Part shown: one piece after another, positions 842 through 7,039 of the stretch
Layout: each line of letters begins with the position of its first letter
Numbering within the stretch: position 1 is the first letter of the stretch
IMG/VR virus record: IMGVR_UViG_2671180986_000004
Length of the DNA: 7,039 bases
Strand: one strand, 5' to 3'
Origin: a virus
Taxonomy: Duplodnaviria > Heunggongvirae > Uroviricota > Caudoviricetes
The notes under the pieces: generated by a model
The model's input: only the letters and a program-made list of their open reading frames with translations
Databases searched by the model: none
What the model was told of the DNA's origin: nothing
Position numbers and translations under genes: made by a program

Positions 842-1606
842 ATGGCAAAACCGGACTGGGAGGCCATCGAATCGGCATACCGGGCCGGAGTCCTTAGCCT
901 CCGTGATATAGGCGAGAAATACGGCGTTACAGAAGGGGCTATCAGGAAGAGGGCCAAAAAGCTTGGTTGGGCACGCAGTGGCGGTACGCAGGTTTGCAAA
1001 AATGGTACGCAAAAAAGGAAAGTGCGTACCAGCAGAAAGCCTGCCATTACTGGCCTTACACAAAAAAGTACGCAACTAAAAACAGAATCTACACCGGATA
1101 CGAAACCGATACGCGGAATGCGTACCGATCCCCCGACTAACCCATTCCAACCCGGTAACCAGCAGGCATTAAAACACGGTGGTTATGCCCGTCGCCTTCT
1201 GCTCAAAGATGAGGTGATAGAGGACGCTAAAGCGTTGACGCTCGAGGACGAATTATTTCGCCTTCGTGCTAACAACCTTGTCGCTGCAGAGAATATTGGT
1301 CGGTGGTTGGTGTCGCTGGAAGATGCTAATGGGGACCAGGAAAGGAAGATGCTGATTGAAAATATCAGCGCCGCCGAGAAAGCAATGATGCGCAATACAG
1401 TTCGTATTGAGTCCATCGTTGGCACGCTTGCGACGGTAGGAAAAATATTTGCTGATACAGCCTACCGCAAGGCCGCCACTGATAAGGTGTCTCTGGAGGC
1501 TGATCGTCTTCGCCGTGATGCAGGTATTGATGATGGCAATGGAGAGCGTGACCTCAATGACTTCTACTCTGACATCCAAACCGACGCTGAATCCGGCTTT
1601 ACGTAG
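842..1606 (+). CDS. Phage terminase small subunit (N-terminal helix-turn-helix DNA-binding domain)
   Basis: ATG at 842 with AGGAAG ribosome-binding site at 829-834; 254 aa; stop TAG at 1604-1606. The N-terminus (LSLRDIGEKYGVTEGAIRKRAKKLGW, about nt 893-971) is a classic helix-turn-helix, followed by a basic linker and a helical C-terminal region, as in small terminase subunits. It sits directly upstream of and overlaps the terminase large subunit gene. Confidence 0.8.
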   Translation: MAKPDWEAIESAYRAGVLSLRDIGEKYGVTEGAIRKRAKKLGWARSGGTQVCKNGTQKRKVRTSRKPAITGLTQKSTQLKTESTPDTKPIRGMRTDPPTNPFQPGNQQALKHGGYARRLLLKDEVIEDAKALTLEDELFRLRANNLVAAENIGRWLVSLEDANGDQERKMLIENISAAEKAMMRNTVRIESIVGTLATVGKIFADTAYRKAATDKVSLEADRLRRDAGIDDGNGERDLNDFYSDIQTDAESGFT

Positions 1607-3099
1607 TTTCTGGACTATGCGGGCACGTAACAAAGTGCTTTATGGTGGTCGGTCATCGTCAAAATCATGGGATGCCGCTGGCATTGCCATATTTCTGTCG
1701 AATAAATACACCCTGCGTTTTTGTTGTGCCCGTCAGATCCAGAATAAAATCGAAGAGTCGGTGTATACCCTGCTCAAAATTCAGATAGACAGGTTTGGTC
1801 TGCGGCACCGTTTCCGTATTCTGAACAACAAAATCATTAACCGGGTTACTGGCTCGGAATTTGTTTTTTATGGATTATGGCGCAACATCGAAGAAATTAA
1901 GTCACTGGAGGGGATCGATGTGTTGTGGCTGGAAGAAGCCCACGCACTGACGGAATACCAGTGGAAAATTCTGGAGCCAACGATCCGTAAAGAGGGTTCG
2001 GAATGCTGGTTCATATTCAACCCCGGACTTGTTACTGATTTCGTCTGGCGCAACTTCGTTGTTGATCCGCCCGAAGGCACTCTCATCCGCAAAATTAACT
2101 ATGACGAAAATCCGTTTCTGTCTGACACCATGCTTAAGGTTATCGACGCGGCGCGACGCCGTGATNNNNNNNNNNNNNNNNNNNNNNNNNNNNNNNNNNN
2201 NNNNNNNNNNNNNNNNNNNNNNNNNNNNNNNNNNNNNNNNNNNNNNNNNNNNNNNNNNNNNNNNNNNNNNNNNNNNNNNNNNNNNNNNNNNNNNNNNNNN
2301 NNNNNNNNNNNNNNNNNNNNNNNNNNNNNNNNNNNNNNNNNNNNNNNNNNNNNNNNNNNNNNNNNNNNNNNNNNNNNNNNNNNNNNNNNNNNNNNNNNNN
2401 NNNNNNNNNNNNNNNNNNNNNNNNNNNNNNNNNNNNNNNNNNNNNNNNNNNNNNNNNNNNNNNNNNNNNNNNNNNNNNNNNNNNNNNNNNNNNNNNNNNN
2501 NNNNNNNNNNNNNNNNNNNNNNNNNNNNNNNNNNNNNNNNNNNNNNNNNNNNNNNNNNNNNNNNNNNNNNNNNNNNNNNNNNNNNNNNNNNNGCAGATAT
2601 TGTTTACGACTCTATCGGTGTTGGTGCGTCTGCCGGTGCTAAATTCTCTGAAATTAACGCTGACCGGAAGAGCGAGAACGCATACGCGCGACGTGTGAAT
2701 TACCAGAGGTTTAACGCCGGTGCTGGTGTGCATGAGCCAGATGACGAGTACAACGGCATCCCCAACAAAGACTTTTTCGCAAATCTTAAGGCTCAGGCAT
2801 GGTGGCTGGTGGCTGACCGTTTCAGAAATACGTTTAACGCCATTAACAACGGAGAACAGTATCCTGTGGATGAGCTGATCAGCATAGATTCTCGTTGTCC
2901 GTTGCTTGAAAAGCTGAAACTGGAACTGACAACACCTCATCGTGATTTCGACCGTAACGGACGTGTGATGGTCGAAAGTAAAAAAGACCTCGCAAAACGC
3001 GAGATACCGTCACCAAACGTTGCTGATGCATTCATTATGGCCTTCGCGCCAATCGATACATCGCTGGATATCTGGGAACAGCTGGGGAGACAGGCCTGA
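1557..3099 (+). CDS. Phage terminase large subunit (PBSX/Terminase_3-like ATPase plus C-terminal nuclease), interrupted by a masked N-run and with a coding-frame change across it
   Basis: Walker A-like VLYGGRSSSKS at about 1644-1667 and Walker B-like IDVLWLEE at 1914-1937 are in frame 0. After the N-run (2166-2592) the nuclease-like region (ADIVYDSIGVG ... ADAFIMAFAP) runs in frame +1 to TGA at 3097-3099. Start chosen at ATG 1557 (GGAG at 1541-1544, about 27 residues before the P-loop); the ORF-track start at 1449 is a TTG extension. ATG 1617 is an alternative start. The span 1557-3099 is 1543 nt, not a multiple of 3. Confidence 0.75.
2166..2592. other. Masked or unresolved sequence (427 N) inside the terminase large subunit gene
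   Basis: Contiguous run of n characters; content unknown. Confidence 0.95.
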
Positions 3100-4565
3100 T
3101 GGCACGAAACAAACAAGCCCTGCGGCGAACTGTGCAGGCCACAGCTGATGGTTATGAGAATTTTATTGCCCGCGTAGGGATGCAGACACCTAACCAGCAC
3201 TCAGCATCCACCTACCGGGCTAATTTCACCAGTCGTAACCGCATGCTGGTGGAATGGTCCTATCGTTCATCCTAGATCATCGGCGAAGCAGTCGATGCTA
3301 TCCCGGATGATATGACCCGCAAAGGCATTCGCATCACTTCGGAAATTGATGCAAAAGATCGTGGCATTCTCGAATCACAACTGGATGAGTTGCAAATCTG
3401 GGATGCGCTGAATGACGTGCTGAAATGGTCGCGCCTCTACGGCGGCGCGGTGGGTTTCATCATGATTGAGGGGTAGGCACCAATGACCCCGCTGCGACCC
3501 GAAACCATCGGTAAGGGCAAGTTTAAGGGGATTCTCCCGCTCGACCGCTGGATGGTCGACCCGGCACTGACCCGCCGCATTAAAGATATGGGGCCGGACC
3601 TGGGTAAACCTGAGTTTTACGATGTGGTGACCACAGCAACGGGAATTCCTGCCTGGCGCATTCATCACAGTCGCCTGATTCGCTTTGATGGCGTCACGTT
3701 GCCATTTCAGCAGAAGATGACCGAGAACGAATGGGGAATGTCGGTTGTAGAGCGTATCTGGGATCGTCTTACCGCGTTCGACAGCGCTACTGTCGGCGCG
3801 GCGCAGCTGGTCTACAAGGCGCATTTGCGTACCTACAGCGTGGAGAAGCTACGCGAGCTTATCGCACTTGGTGGTCCTGCGTATGAAGCGTTGCTGAAGA
3901 ATATCGACCTGATTCGACAGTTCCAGAGTAATGAAGGCATGACGCTCATGGACTCGCGGGATAAGTTTGAAACCCATCAGTACAGCTTCAGTGGTCTGGA
4001 TGACATCCTTTCGCAGTTTGTAGAACAGATTAGTGGCGCTGTTGGTATCCCACTGGTGCGGTTGTTCGGACAGTCCCCGAAAGGATTTTCTACCGGTGAT
4101 GCAGACCTTGCCAACTATTACGATCGCATCAGTTCGTTGCAGGAGAGGCGTTTACGTCTTCCGGTGCGGCGGATACTGGACATCATGCATCGTTCGGAAC
4201 TTGGCAAGCCGCTGCCGGACGATTTCACGTTTGAGTTTAACCCGCTCTGGCAAATGTCTGATGTCGATCGCTCAACGGTGGCGTTAAACACCACCAACGC
4301 AATCAGTACGGCGCTGGGTGATGGTCTGATGACACTGAAAGCCGCTATGACTGATTTGCGAGAAAATTCTGACGTAACCGGCATCGGGGCATCCATTACC
4401 GACGAGGAAATCGAGAATGCCGAAGATGAAGCGCCGCCCGGCATCGGCGAACCTGATGACGAACCGCAGGAGCCGTCAGGCGGAAATCCGGTATCGAACC
4501 AGCCTACGCAGGATAGCGAGGGCGGTCGGAGACATCGTAAATGGTCGCTACGATGGTTCAAATGA
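3099..4565 (+). CDS. Phage portal protein reading frame (possibly DUF1073-like); stop-free from ATG 3483, with the N-terminal ~128 codons in the same frame interrupted by two in-frame TAG codons (3273-3275, 3474-3476); possible pseudogene or suppressed amber codons
   Basis: ATG at 3099-3101 overlaps the terminase large TGA (3097-3099) in an ATGA-type junction. Translating frame 0 from 3099 gives MARNKQALRRTVQATADGYENFIARVGMQTPNQHSASTYRANFTSRNRMLVEWSYRSS-TAG-IIGEAVDAIPDDMTRKGIRITSEIDAKDRGILESQLDELQIWDALNDVLKWSRLYGGAVGFIMIEG-TAG-APMTPLRPETIGKGKF..., continuous with the 360-aa ORF 3483-4565. Total about 488 codons, typical of a portal; the stop-free 360-aa part alone would be short. Position after the terminase and the acidic C-terminal tail fit a portal. 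Family name is from memory. Confidence 0.7.
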
Positions 4566-5277
4566 CAGTATCACGGAAATTATTGCGGCGCTGGAGCGTT
4601 ACAGTGAAATCATCACCCCCTGGGCGACAAAGGTCGCGGAAAACTTTACTGCGGACCTAACCCGGCAGAACGAGAAAGTTTGGCGGCAACACAGCAAGAA
4701 CATCAGTCGCGANNNNNNNNNNNNNNNNNNNNNNNNNNNNNNNNNNNNNNNNNNNNNNNNNNNNNNNNNNNNNNNNNNNNNNNNNNNNNNNNNNNNNNNN
4801 NNNNNNNNNNNNNNNNNNNNNNNNNNNNNNNNNNNNNNNNNNNNNNNNNNNNNNNNNNNNNNNNNNNNNNNNNNNNNNNNNNNNNNNNNNNNNNNNNNNN
4901 NNNNNNNNNNNNNNNNNNNNNNNNNNNNNNNNNNNNNNNNNNNNNNNNNNNNNNNNNNNNNNNNNNNNNNNNNNNNNNNNNNNNNNNNNNNNNNNNNNNN
5001 NNNNNNNNNNNNNNNNNNNNNNNNNNNNNNNNNNNNNNNNNNNNNNNNNNNNNNNNNNNNNNNNNNNNNNNNNNNNNNNNNNNNNNNNNNNNNNNNNNNN
5101 NNNNNNNATGGCGATGTCCGAGATTCCCACGATCACATGAAAGGTAAATTCGTCCGCTGGGATTCACCTCCAACTTTGGACGGCATGACCGGCCACGCGG
5201 GCGAGCTGCCAAACTGCCGCTGCTATAAAGAGATCGTGTTTGTTCGCGTTCCATTCGCAATGAAAAGGGCAGCATAA
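4417..5277 (+). CDS. Phage head morphogenesis protein (Mu F-like / SPP1 gp7-like minor head protein), containing a masked N-run
   Basis: The C-terminal segment after the N-run contains HAGELPNCRCY (PNCRC at 5209-5223), matching the conserved motif recalled for the Phage_Mu_F domain. Frame +1 is coherent on both sides of the mask. Stop TAA at 5275-5277, 3 nt before the next gene. The start is uncertain: in-frame ATGs at 4417 (GAGG 9 nt upstream), 4426 and 4456, all inside the portal gene; no in-frame ATG/GTG/TTG exists between 4459 and the mask. Confidence 0.75.
   Translation: MPKMKRRPASANLMTNRRSRQAEIRYRTSLRRIARAVGDIVNGRYDGSNDSITEIIAALERYSEIITPWATKVAENFTADLTRQNEKVWRQHSKNISRXXXXXXXXXXXXXXXXXXXXXXXXXXXXXXXXXXXXXXXXXXXXXXXXXXXXXXXXXXXXXXXXXXXXXXXXXXXXXXXXXXXXXXXXXXXXXXXXXXXXXXXXXXXXXXXXXXXXXXXXXXXXXXXXXXXXXGDVRDSHDHMKGKFVRWDSPPTLDGMTGHAGELPNCRCYKEIVFVRVPFAMKRAA
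4713..5107. other. Masked or unresolved sequence (395 N) inside the head morphogenesis gene
   Basis: Contiguous run of n characters; content unknown. Confidence 0.95.
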
Positions 5278-5280
5278 CCC

Positions 5281-6501
5281 ATGAAATACTTTTTTGAGAC
5301 CAGGCTCGGGGAAACCCGATACCGCCTGGCTGACGGCTCGTTGCTGTGCAAAGACGTGCCGATAGGACGAACAGGTAAGCAGCTCTATGGTGCTGATGAC
5401 CTGCCAAAACTGAAACCCGATAAGTTCGGTGAAATAGTCGTCACGCGTTCTCCTGAGCAGGTATTCCATCCGGCCACGCTTGCCTCATTCGAAGGGATGA
5501 GCATCACGATCCTGCATCCTGAAGATGAAAACGGGAATGTGCGGCTGGTAAATCCCGAGAACTGGAAAGAGCTTGCTGTCGGGCACCTCCAGAATGTCCG
5601 GCGCGGGACGGGTGAGCAGTCTGATTTGATGCTGGCTGACCTTATCGTCAAAGACGAAAGCGCCATTCAGCTTATCGAAGATGGCCTGCGCGAAGTGTCG
5701 TGCGGCTATGACGCGGAGTACGAGCAGACCGAGCCAGGTAAAGCCGAGCAGGTCGATATTACCGGAAACCATGTGGCTCTTGTCCCTAAAGGCAGAGCCG
5801 GAAATCGTTGTGCAATTGGAGACAGAGACACAATGGCAAATCAAAAGAAAAACTGGTGGAACCGCATGCGTGCGGCCATCAAGACAGGAGATGCCGACAC
5901 CATGAACGAACTGGTGGAGTCGGCTCCCGCATCGGTTACAGGAGATGAGGGGGATTTGCCGCAGGGCGTTAATCTCAACATCAACCTGTCCCCGCAGCAA
6001 CCACTACCGGACAAAGCACCAGAGATGGGCGGAGATCCAACCGGCGACAGTGATGATGACCTCAAAACATTACTGAAAGCCCTGCTGGCTAAGCTGGAAA
6101 GAAATGCCACGGGCGATAACGATAATAAGCCTGACGATAATCCGACCGGTGACGGCGAGGACGATGAAGAGGAAACCACGATTACTGGTGACTCAGCCTG
6201 GCGTGCCGAAGTTATCGTTCCGGGTATCGATCTGAGCCGTAAGATGAAACCGACCGCGTTCAAACGCGAGGTTCTGGCTTCTGCTGACAAAACGCTGGTT
6301 CGCCAGATAGTCGGTGATGCGGATATCCGCAAATTACCGAAACAATCGGTCGACATGGCGTTTAATGCCGTGTCTGAGGTTGCCAAAGGGCGAAACACCC
6401 GCGCCACCACCGGCGATGCACAGCGCCTAAACATGGGCATGACCAGTATCGCTTCCCTGAACAAACAAAACGCTGAATTCTGGGCAAACCGTAAAGGGTA
6501 A
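5281..6501 (+). CDS. Phage head-assembly protein, possibly DUF2213-like; putative scaffolding protein with an acidic low-complexity C-terminal half
   Basis: ATG at 5281, 3 nt after the upstream stop; 406 aa; stop TAA at 6499-6501. The N-terminal ~190 aa form a globular-looking domain; the C-terminal half is Asp/Glu-rich, helical-looking, with recurring TGD motifs. Its position between the head-morphogenesis gene and small head-protein genes suits a scaffold or prohead-processing role. Function is inferred from context and recalled family resemblance. Confidence 0.6.
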   Translation: MKYFFETRLGETRYRLADGSLLCKDVPIGRTGKQLYGADDLPKLKPDKFGEIVVTRSPEQVFHPATLASFEGMSITILHPEDENGNVRLVNPENWKELAVGHLQNVRRGTGEQSDLMLADLIVKDESAIQLIEDGLREVSCGYDAEYEQTEPGKAEQVDITGNHVALVPKGRAGNRCAIGDRDTMANQKKNWWNRMRAAIKTGDADTMNELVESAPASVTGDEGDLPQGVNLNINLSPQQPLPDKAPEMGGDPTGDSDDDLKTLLKALLAKLERNATGDNDNKPDDNPTGDGEDDEEETTITGDSAWRAEVIVPGIDLSRKMKPTAFKREVLASADKTLVRQIVGDADIRKLPKQSVDMAFNAVSEVAKGRNTRATTGDAQRLNMGMTSIASLNKQNAEFWANRKG

Positions 6502-6504
6502 AAA

Positions 6505-7011
6505 ATGAATAATGTATTTCTGTACCGGATGCCTGTTGGCATTGCCGGGGCTGTCTCTCGCCCGCAGGACTTAACCGTCGAACCGGTGGTCCTTAAATCC
6601 GATAACGCCTTCGCTGCCTATGGCCTGGCTGGTAAATACGATGATGACGGTTTTTTCGTGCCGCTGGCAGATGGTGATACCGCAGACAAGGTGAAGGGGA
6701 TCTACGTGCGCCCTTATCCGACCACGTCGCAGCCGGACATGGTTCGCCAGGTGGGAACAGGCAAGAACTTCCCGGGCGACGCCATGAAGCGTGGCTACGT
6801 GACCGTTAATCTCGGTTCTGATTTTGATGCCAGCACTATCAAAAAAGGCGATCCGGTATACGTTGTCGTCTCCACTGATGAATCCATCAAAGTGCCGCTG
6901 GGTGGATTCATGTCCACGTCAGTCAGTGGCAAAAACGTGGTGCTGACCAACGCTGAATTCACAGGTGCCGGTGATGCTGACGGCAATGCAGAAATTTCCT
7001 GGAAGATTTAA
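6505..7011 (+). CDS. Small phage head structural protein (putative decoration/cement-type protein)
   Basis: ATG at 6505 with AAAGGG 8-9 nt upstream, 3 nt after the preceding stop; 168 aa; stop TAA at 7009-7011. Gly/Val/Asp-rich, beta-strand-like composition and location just before the window end, where a major capsid gene would be expected. Function is inferred from synteny only. Confidence 0.5.
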   Translation: MNNVFLYRMPVGIAGAVSRPQDLTVEPVVLKSDNAFAAYGLAGKYDDDGFFVPLADGDTADKVKGIYVRPYPTTSQPDMVRQVGTGKNFPGDAMKRGYVTVNLGSDFDASTIKKGDPVYVVVSTDESIKVPLGGFMSTSVSGKNVVLTNAEFTGAGDADGNAEISWKI

Positions 7012-7039
7012 GGAACAGACGAATGAGGTGATGCTGCCA

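Follow-up and report, generated by a model that had tools for sequence, protein, structure and literature searches.

The stretch of 7,039 bp analysed here, hereafter the window, is listed as a caudoviricete sequence in IMG/VR (IMGVR_UViG_2671180986_000004) and is the whole of contig CXDQ01000201.1 (L004) of the draft assembly GCA_001252575.1, the deposited record being identical to it, including two runs of undetermined bases (N). It holds a phage head and DNA-packaging module, in the order small-terminase-position gene (terS), large terminase gene (terL), portal gene, Mu-F-like head-morphogenesis gene, DUF2213 head protein gene and Gp24 capsid cement gene, and it ends inside an insertion sequence (IS). 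This module, its interrupted portal gene and the prophage from which it derives are the subject of our analysis. A preliminary description, made from the letters of the window, had already proposed this gene order, for which Pfam matches now provide support at all positions except that of terS. The same description took the module to be complete-looking, with lesions in terL and in the portal gene, and offered a defective prophage, a domesticated element or a deliberately crippled construct as explanations.

All genes of the module lie on the plus strand. The gene at the terS position (842-1606; 254 amino acids) is without a Pfam match and is terminated by a genuine TAG, and over 1557-1606 it overlaps terL (1557-3099; Terminase_3/PBSX family, E = 4e-38; intact), whose start was adopted from the annotation of identical relatives. 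The overlap had been noted before, as had the 3-nt spacers at 5278-5280 and 6502-6504; the junction between terL and the portal gene, previously given as ATGA, reads TGATG, with the TGA at 3097-3099, the ATG at 3099-3101 and an overlap of 1 nt. The portal gene (3099-4565; 488 codons, Phage_portal_3/DUF1073) is a pseudogene colinear with the intact protein WP_000113499.1. It is followed by three intact genes, as had been claimed, namely, the Mu-F-like gene (4456-5277; Phage_Mu_F, E = 2e-18), the gene for a Pa193 gp24-like DUF2213 head protein (5281-6501; 406 amino acids, E = 3e-42) and the gene for a cement, or minor capsid, protein of the Gp24/XM1-gp53 type (6505-7011; 168 amino acids, E = 4e-30). 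Only the first four nucleotides of the DUF2184 major capsid gene remain (ATGA, 7023-7026; compared with L001, a related prophage introduced below, from its position 24353), and the contig ends in the left, insA-proximal terminal repeat of IS1, GGTGATGCTGCCA (7027-7039), oriented like the late genes.

The frame discontinuity that had been reported in terL is an artefact of scaffolding. Two scaffold gaps, assigned to no strand, interrupt the deposited contig, with 427 N at 2166-2592 and 395 N at 4713-5107. The sizes of such gaps in short-read assembly scaffolds are estimates. Two gap-free sister contigs, L003 (GCA_001252175.1) and L005 (GCA_001253895.1), are 100% identical to the window across all 6,217 determined bases, and in both of them the real contents of the gaps are 288 and 317 nt, the lengths also found in the complete genomes of close relatives. 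The first run has a length of one modulo three (427 mod 3 = 1), the reading frame before it is not the frame after it, and terL appears broken because this wrongly sized run falls within the gene. The true terL has 1,404 nt and encodes an uninterrupted, stop-free product of 467 amino acids (L003:2498-3901; flanks 100% identical to the window), and hence it has no lesion. The true Mu-F-like gene is likewise uninterrupted, with 744 nt and 247 amino acids (L003:5258-6001), and overlaps the 3' end of the portal gene by 110 nt. That the N runs might be length-faithful masks, concealing insertions of 139 and 78 nt, was considered and rejected on the evidence of the gap-free clonal contigs. N runs in draft scaffolds thus call for caution, since their estimated lengths give rise to false frameshifts.

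The two amber codons reported in the portal gene, by comparison, are real, and the same TAGs are present in independently sequenced assemblies. They lie in frame within 3099-4565 and leave open reading frames (ORFs) of 58, 54 and 360 amino acids. First, at codon 59 (W59*; 3273-3275) TGG has become TAG by a G>A change at 3274. Second, at codon 126 (Q126*; 3474-3476) CAG has become TAG by a C>T change at 3474. Both changes are derived, with TGG and CAG, respectively, in seven of the seven relatives that are free of these lesions. Two of these relatives, the prophages of VL40 (L001) and FDAARGOS_943 (L002), both from genomes labelled Escherichia coli, are 99.8% identical to the window and encode an intact portal protein of 488 amino acids. 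The five further relatives used to polarise the changes were two distant E. coli prophages, phage vB_EcoM-689R2, Shigella flexneri SFBU1023 and E. coli ECMA0423, the last two being the sole matches of a scan of species-representative genomes and both having intact codons. Each amber is accordingly a single derived G:C>A:T transition. Two more derived substitutions were found in the gene, namely, A308V (C>T at 4021), common to the other Shigella sonnei loci examined, and D437E (C>A at 4409), private to the small sub-lineage of the window (6 contigs). The Pfam portal domain comprises residues 55-402 and translation halts at codon 59; no full-length portal protein is possible, because codons 59 and 126 are both ambers. 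In tailed phages the portal is needed for procapsid nucleation and assembly, as well as for DNA packaging.

How widely these lesions occur depended on the sequence used for the search. Neither amber allele was present in any of 5,426 complete E. coli genomes, among which the best match of a 271-nt probe was 99.3% identical, equivalent to two mismatches. Exact look-up of the 360-amino-acid C-terminal fragment, which includes the sub-lineage-specific D437E, returned six contigs only, and for a time the ambers could be taken as private to about six assemblies. This was rejected, as the 58-amino-acid fragment bounded by the first amber is indexed in 2,737 assembly blocks and the 54-amino-acid fragment in 2,758, that is, some 2,740 blocks, more than 20 of them with megabase contigs, including HE616528.1, the chromosome of S. 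sonnei 53G. Claims of private lesions therefore need look-ups that tolerate other changes, as six carriers found with one fragment became thousands with the other two. Among independently assembled loci, finished chromosomes included, both amber substitutions were seen in all of those examined (15/15), and W59*, Q126* and A308V are common to every S. sonnei-type locus that we inspected.

These counts bear on two explanations that would make the ambers something other than natural decay. Sequencing or assembly error, with a portal gene that is really intact, might be suspected in a short-read draft contig that contains two N gaps, the more so as some other assemblies of the locus show obvious homopolymer indel errors. 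However, the TAG changes are substitutions and not homopolymer indels, and the recurrence of the same two of them in independent assemblies contradicts this explanation and leaves it vanishingly unlikely. A laboratory or engineered amber-mutant phage, the deliberately crippled construct of the preliminary description, merits as little credence. It is true that G:C>A:T mutagens classically give amber mutants through TGG>TAG and CAG>TAG, but no spontaneous change is commoner than G:C>A:T, which counts against such a reading. Moreover, the lesions are found in thousands of indexed assemblies of natural, clinical isolates, with the reference strain 53G among them, and in a chromosomal context of IS1, IS2, IS600 and pgl.

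The chromosome of 53G differs from the window at two positions only, 363 and 4409. At position 363 the window has the ancestral C, as do the E. coli relatives, and a T was found in ten of the ten S. sonnei loci on large contigs that were examined. This C and the private A at 4409 jointly suggest that the window comes from a rare, early-branching sub-lineage of S. sonnei. A recently inactivated prophage had been among the options named, which holds insofar as E. coli relatives with 99.8% identity lack the lesions, and does not hold if an event confined to this isolate is meant. The lesions are fixed across very many indexed S. sonnei assemblies, and they are recent by sequence divergence, not private to the isolate.

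The largest lesion, which had gone unnoticed and on account of which the module cannot be called complete-looking, is at the right edge of the window. There, 4 nt into the capsid gene, the last 13 nt (7027-7039) diverge abruptly from all intact relatives. The sister contigs run 35 nt further into IS1, and in L001 and L002 an identical 35-mer is located 55 nt before the annotated transposase genes of IS1. In complete S. sonnei genomes (53G) this IS1 measures 768 bp and has no target-site duplication, with GACGAATGA as its left flank and AACAGGGGG as its right flank. The right flank corresponds to position 4501 of L024, the right end of the FDAARGOS_943 prophage, and thus to the extreme right prophage end; a truncated DNA-invertase gene follows after 17 nt, and beyond this fragment come the chromosomal genes pgl and then ybhD. 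Measured on FDAARGOS_943, about 20.6 kb are absent at the IS1, comprising the capsid gene, every gene for neck, sheath, tube, baseplate and tail fibres, and ipaHb. The IS1 junction was found in none of the 5,426 complete E. coli genomes. Had IS1 simply inserted with a 9-bp duplication, the capsid ORF would be restored on its other side; this possibility was rejected, since no such repeat is present and what follows IS1 is the right prophage end. Contig ends that break off in a mere 13 nt of an IS terminal repeat deserve attention, as they hold the key information.

Erosion is equally evident upstream of the module. In the S. sonnei loci the holin gene is interrupted by IS2, with an IS110-family element in front of it; the late-gene regulator region is disrupted as well; and the antiterminator, tRNA and replication regions of the relatives are replaced by IS600-type elements, with a small helix-turn-helix (HTH)/DUF1391 fragment left. 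Examination of the flanks for lysis and tail genes, recommended in the preliminary description, showed that complete S. sonnei genomes have the holin gene split by IS2 and the tail genes deleted. The option of a defective prophage was the right one, even though the terL lesion adduced for it does not exist and the lesions that decide the matter are found at the edges of the window or outside them.

The state of the flanks also enters into the question of whether the ambers inactivate anything. If a host or phage suppressor tRNA, or reassignment of TAG, allowed readthrough, full-length portal would be made and the module could be functional, a reading to which the use of the same codon for both stops and the otherwise perfectly preserved frame lend some appeal, as does a cluster of four tRNA genes located upstream of the lysis genes in related prophages. 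However, the anticodons of these tRNAs are CAT, TCT, TGT and either TAC or TCC, none of them CTA, and a scan limited to the tRNA clusters of the relatives yielded no suppressor (CUA-anticodon) tRNA; in addition, the cluster has apparently been lost from the S. sonnei remnant. Within the same operon TAG genuinely terminates the gene at the terS position, the homologous positions in all relatives have sense codons (W and Q), and one gene only is affected. An in-frame TAG in an essential structural gene is a feature shared with TAG-recoded phages and laboratory amber mutants, but the traits of recoding, namely, TAGs spread across many genes, at conserved positions, with TAG unused as a stop, are absent here. 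As the capsid and tail genes are deleted regardless, we consider readthrough extremely unlikely.

We are highly confident, instead, that the window is a fixed, IS-eroded head and packaging remnant of a SEN34-like temperate myovirus prophage in S. sonnei. Derived inactivating lesions in essential genes (W59*, Q126* and IS1 at nucleotide 4 of the capsid gene) mark it as defective, and the loss of the capsid, tail and early/integration modules is seen in complete S. sonnei genomes that are two bases away from the window. Membership of the SEN34-like group is indicated by the set and order of genes, with only 4 nt of the capsid gene, and by nucleotide similarity. The genes expected on the two flanks in this group, for lysis and early functions of lambdoid type upstream and for a contractile tail and baseplate downstream, are present in L001 and L002, whereas in S. 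sonnei the tail genes are deleted and the early region consists of fragments only. No evidence of domestication, recoding or engineering was found.

Under this interpretation, the ancestor was a temperate myovirus whose early and lysis region was lambdoid and whose structural module was of the SEN34 type, integrated beside pgl and with ipaH at its right end, and the window is its surviving lysis-distal, head-proximal part. Four kinds of lesion have disabled it in the S. sonnei lineage. First, two G:C>A:T transitions created the portal ambers and abolished the full-length protein. Second, an IS1 located 4 nt into the major capsid gene is joined directly to the extreme right prophage end, with loss of the capsid, the tail and ipaHb. 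Third, an IS2 splits the holin gene. Fourth, IS elements have replaced most of the early region. With portal translation stopping at codon 59 and the capsid gene gone, the remnant should be unable to make heads, and its gene content predicts that no infective particles would be released. That terS, terL and the Mu-F-like, DUF2213 and cement genes look intact is most likely due to the short time elapsed, because only 9-10 of the 6,204 determined bases (0.13-0.15%) differ between the window and its intact E. coli relatives. In this host-restricted pathogen, point mutations and IS activity have eroded the prophage in textbook fashion; the case is of little biological import, and concerns an object of an already known kind that is present in S. 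sonnei reference genomes.

The same five ORFs, uninterrupted despite their IS-riddled flanks, can be read differently, as genes of a domesticated element kept for some host function while the portal gene was specifically silenced, and the location of the derived substitutions, four of four in the portal gene, goes in the same direction. Nevertheless, at the divergence given above intact ORFs are expected by default. Furthermore, the genes that are whole in S. sonnei are broken in sister Shigella-type lineages. FDAARGOS_943 has an IS2 in terL and a nonsense mutation in the Mu-F-like gene (W209*, TGG>TGA), and S. flexneri SFBU1023 has both an IS2 and a 7-bp deletion in terL and has lost 17 bp from the cement gene; in VL40, IS150 and IS2 are inserted in tail genes. 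In each related Shigella-type genome, decay of this prophage has taken an independent course, and no architecture is conserved across lineages. The comparison with close relatives that had been called for showed the ambers to be common to S. sonnei-type loci and absent from the seven lesion-free relatives, and such lineage-specific lesions, along with the disrupted holin gene and late-gene regulator region, speak against domestication, which we judge very unlikely.

The clustering of substitutions nevertheless merits consideration on its own. Over 6,809 aligned bases, all four substitutions derived in the lineage of the window (3274, 3474, 4021 and 4409) fall within the 1,467 nt of the portal gene and all four alter the protein, with none in the other 5.3 kb; these are only four events in total, too few to tell constraint from lack of time. 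The probability of such clustering is about 0.002 under uniform placement and about 0.05 after allowing for ascertainment through the two ambers. Elsewhere the portal gene evolves under constraint, with synonymous to nonsynonymous changes at 24:6 and 17:9, as compared with 0:4 in the lineage of the window (Fisher p = 0.005-0.026). We regard the clustering as weakly significant at best and probably due to chance. It is very unlikely that inactivation of the portal was selected instead of neutral, the neighbouring intact terminase and head genes being then tolerated or used. Avs-type sensors are host defence sensors that recognise portal proteins. Were selection involved, portal expression from an immobilised prophage might be costly, or it may trigger a host sensor of the portal-recognising kind.

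Several points weigh against the prophage remnant that we favour. Substitutions restricted to the portal gene are not what neutral decay across the entire remnant would specifically predict. The true contents of the two gaps, for the isolate of the window, are those of identical clonal relatives and were not read directly. Similarly, its own assembly includes 13 nt of IS1 only, and the deletion of about 20 kb and the IS2 within the holin gene are attributed to this isolate from clonal relatives that are identical or two bases apart. Lastly, S. sonnei as the source organism of GCA_001252575.1 is an indirect identification, which we infer from near-identity to 53G and from the shared IS1 junction; in addition, WGS prefixes of the form CXB* appear among the S. 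sonnei assemblies of Holt 2012.

The remnant can be placed among known phages and prophages with some precision. Intact modules of this type give rise to particles, as seen with Salmonella phage SEN34, which is mitomycin-inducible and plaque-forming, has myovirus morphology and a lambda-like early region, and is the prototype of the cluster 'temperate 26', as quoted in the same report (PMC5261728). SEN34 and the coliphages vB_EcoM-689R2, vB_EcoM-611R5, vB_EcoM-683R1 and vB_EcoM-606R2 share the order portal (DUF1073), Mu-F, DUF2213, cement and DUF2184 capsid with the lineage of the window, and from portal to cement the DNA is 96-98% identical to that of the four coliphages and 83-84% identical to that of SEN34. 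These genomes, in which a lambdoid early region is combined with a myovirus structural module, are deposited as those of complete phages, with the portal gene intact where checked (689R2), whereas in the window the portal gene is interrupted by two ambers and the capsid and tail genes are missing. SEN34 matches the terS/terL type of the window; the coliphages, in contrast, have another terminase pair, with a recombination breakpoint near position 3046 of the window. The terminase region also has close counterparts in the Klebsiella temperate phages GZ7, ST16-OXA48phi5.2 and Wanchaivirus PDP110P2, where the gene at the terS position, labelled terminase small subunit, and the PBSX-type terL show 84% DNA identity over their full length; these phages belong to a different host genus, and the comparison covered the terminase region only.

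As an aside to these comparisons, E. coli 97-3250 and vB_EcoM-689R2 (L007 and L008) have a module that is 94-98% identical from the portal gene onward, preceded by an unrelated terS of 190 amino acids and an unrelated terL of 540 amino acids. An unrelated terminase pair next to a shared portal-onward module implies that the terminase cassette was exchanged as a unit at the boundary between terL and the portal gene, at about position 3046 and some 50 nt before the portal gene.

Rac, DLP12, Qin and e14 are the classical cryptic prophages of E. coli K-12. Genome degradation driven by ISs is known in Shigella, as described in 'Impact of insertion sequences on convergent evolution of Shigella species' (PMC7373316). 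The S. sonnei remnant resembles both, with its IS1, IS2, IS600 and IS110-family elements, its point pseudogenes, its IS-associated deletion and its fixation in the clone, and does not differ in kind from either, although it keeps five uninterrupted head and packaging ORFs. TAG-recoded phages differ from it more clearly, given that the remnant has its two TAGs in a single gene and that its relatives have sense codons at these positions.

Outside the module, the window includes a gene for a DedA/VTT-domain membrane protein on the minus strand (135-647; 170 amino acids, Pfam VTT_dom, E = 9e-14), annotated as DedA family, WP_011069285.1, in relatives. This gene is antisense to the late genes, lies between the lysis cassette and terS, and is moron-like in appearance; it is found in the Shigella-type copies, and the distant relatives L006 and L007 have other small genes in its place. 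No matches were obtained when the gap-free contig was scanned with Rfam, nor when the 600-900 intergenic region was scanned for promoters and terminators.

The ipaHb gene, coding for a type III-secretion effector (E3 ubiquitin ligase), is located at 2200-4026 of L024, near pgl and between the tail-fibre genes and the DNA invertase. This copy is absent from the S. sonnei loci L011-L023, having been lost with the capsid and tail genes in the IS1-associated deletion. Its presence in the right prophage end shows the nominal E. coli FDAARGOS_943 to be of the Shigella or enteroinvasive E. coli (EIEC) type.

A number of annotation discrepancies were encountered along the way. Single-base deletions in L015 and L017-L020 (JBEAA*/JBDZZZ*/JBQRUS*, megabase contigs) split terS, terL, DUF2213 and cement genes into spurious fragments when compared with finished genomes; they are probably long-read homopolymer errors and not pseudogenisation, and were excluded from the lesion counts. 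The start of the Mu-F-like gene is called differently on identical DNA, giving 247 or 152 amino acids (4417/4456-5277 in the window, and likewise in L005, L012 and others). The RefSeq genome NZ_CP148474.1 has this DUF1073 portal under the name 'anti-CBASS protein Acb1 family protein', and the product of the tail spike gene (L001 35747-36499) is printed as 'xxxxx family membrane-puncturing spike protein'. In the tRNA cluster of the related prophages, the first gene is Ile according to the RefSeq annotation and Met(CAT) according to ARAGORN, and the fourth is a tRNA-Val(TAC) of 72 nt in VL40 (L001 16051-16122) and a tRNA-Gly(TCC) of 75 nt in FDAARGOS_943 (L002 14324-14398).

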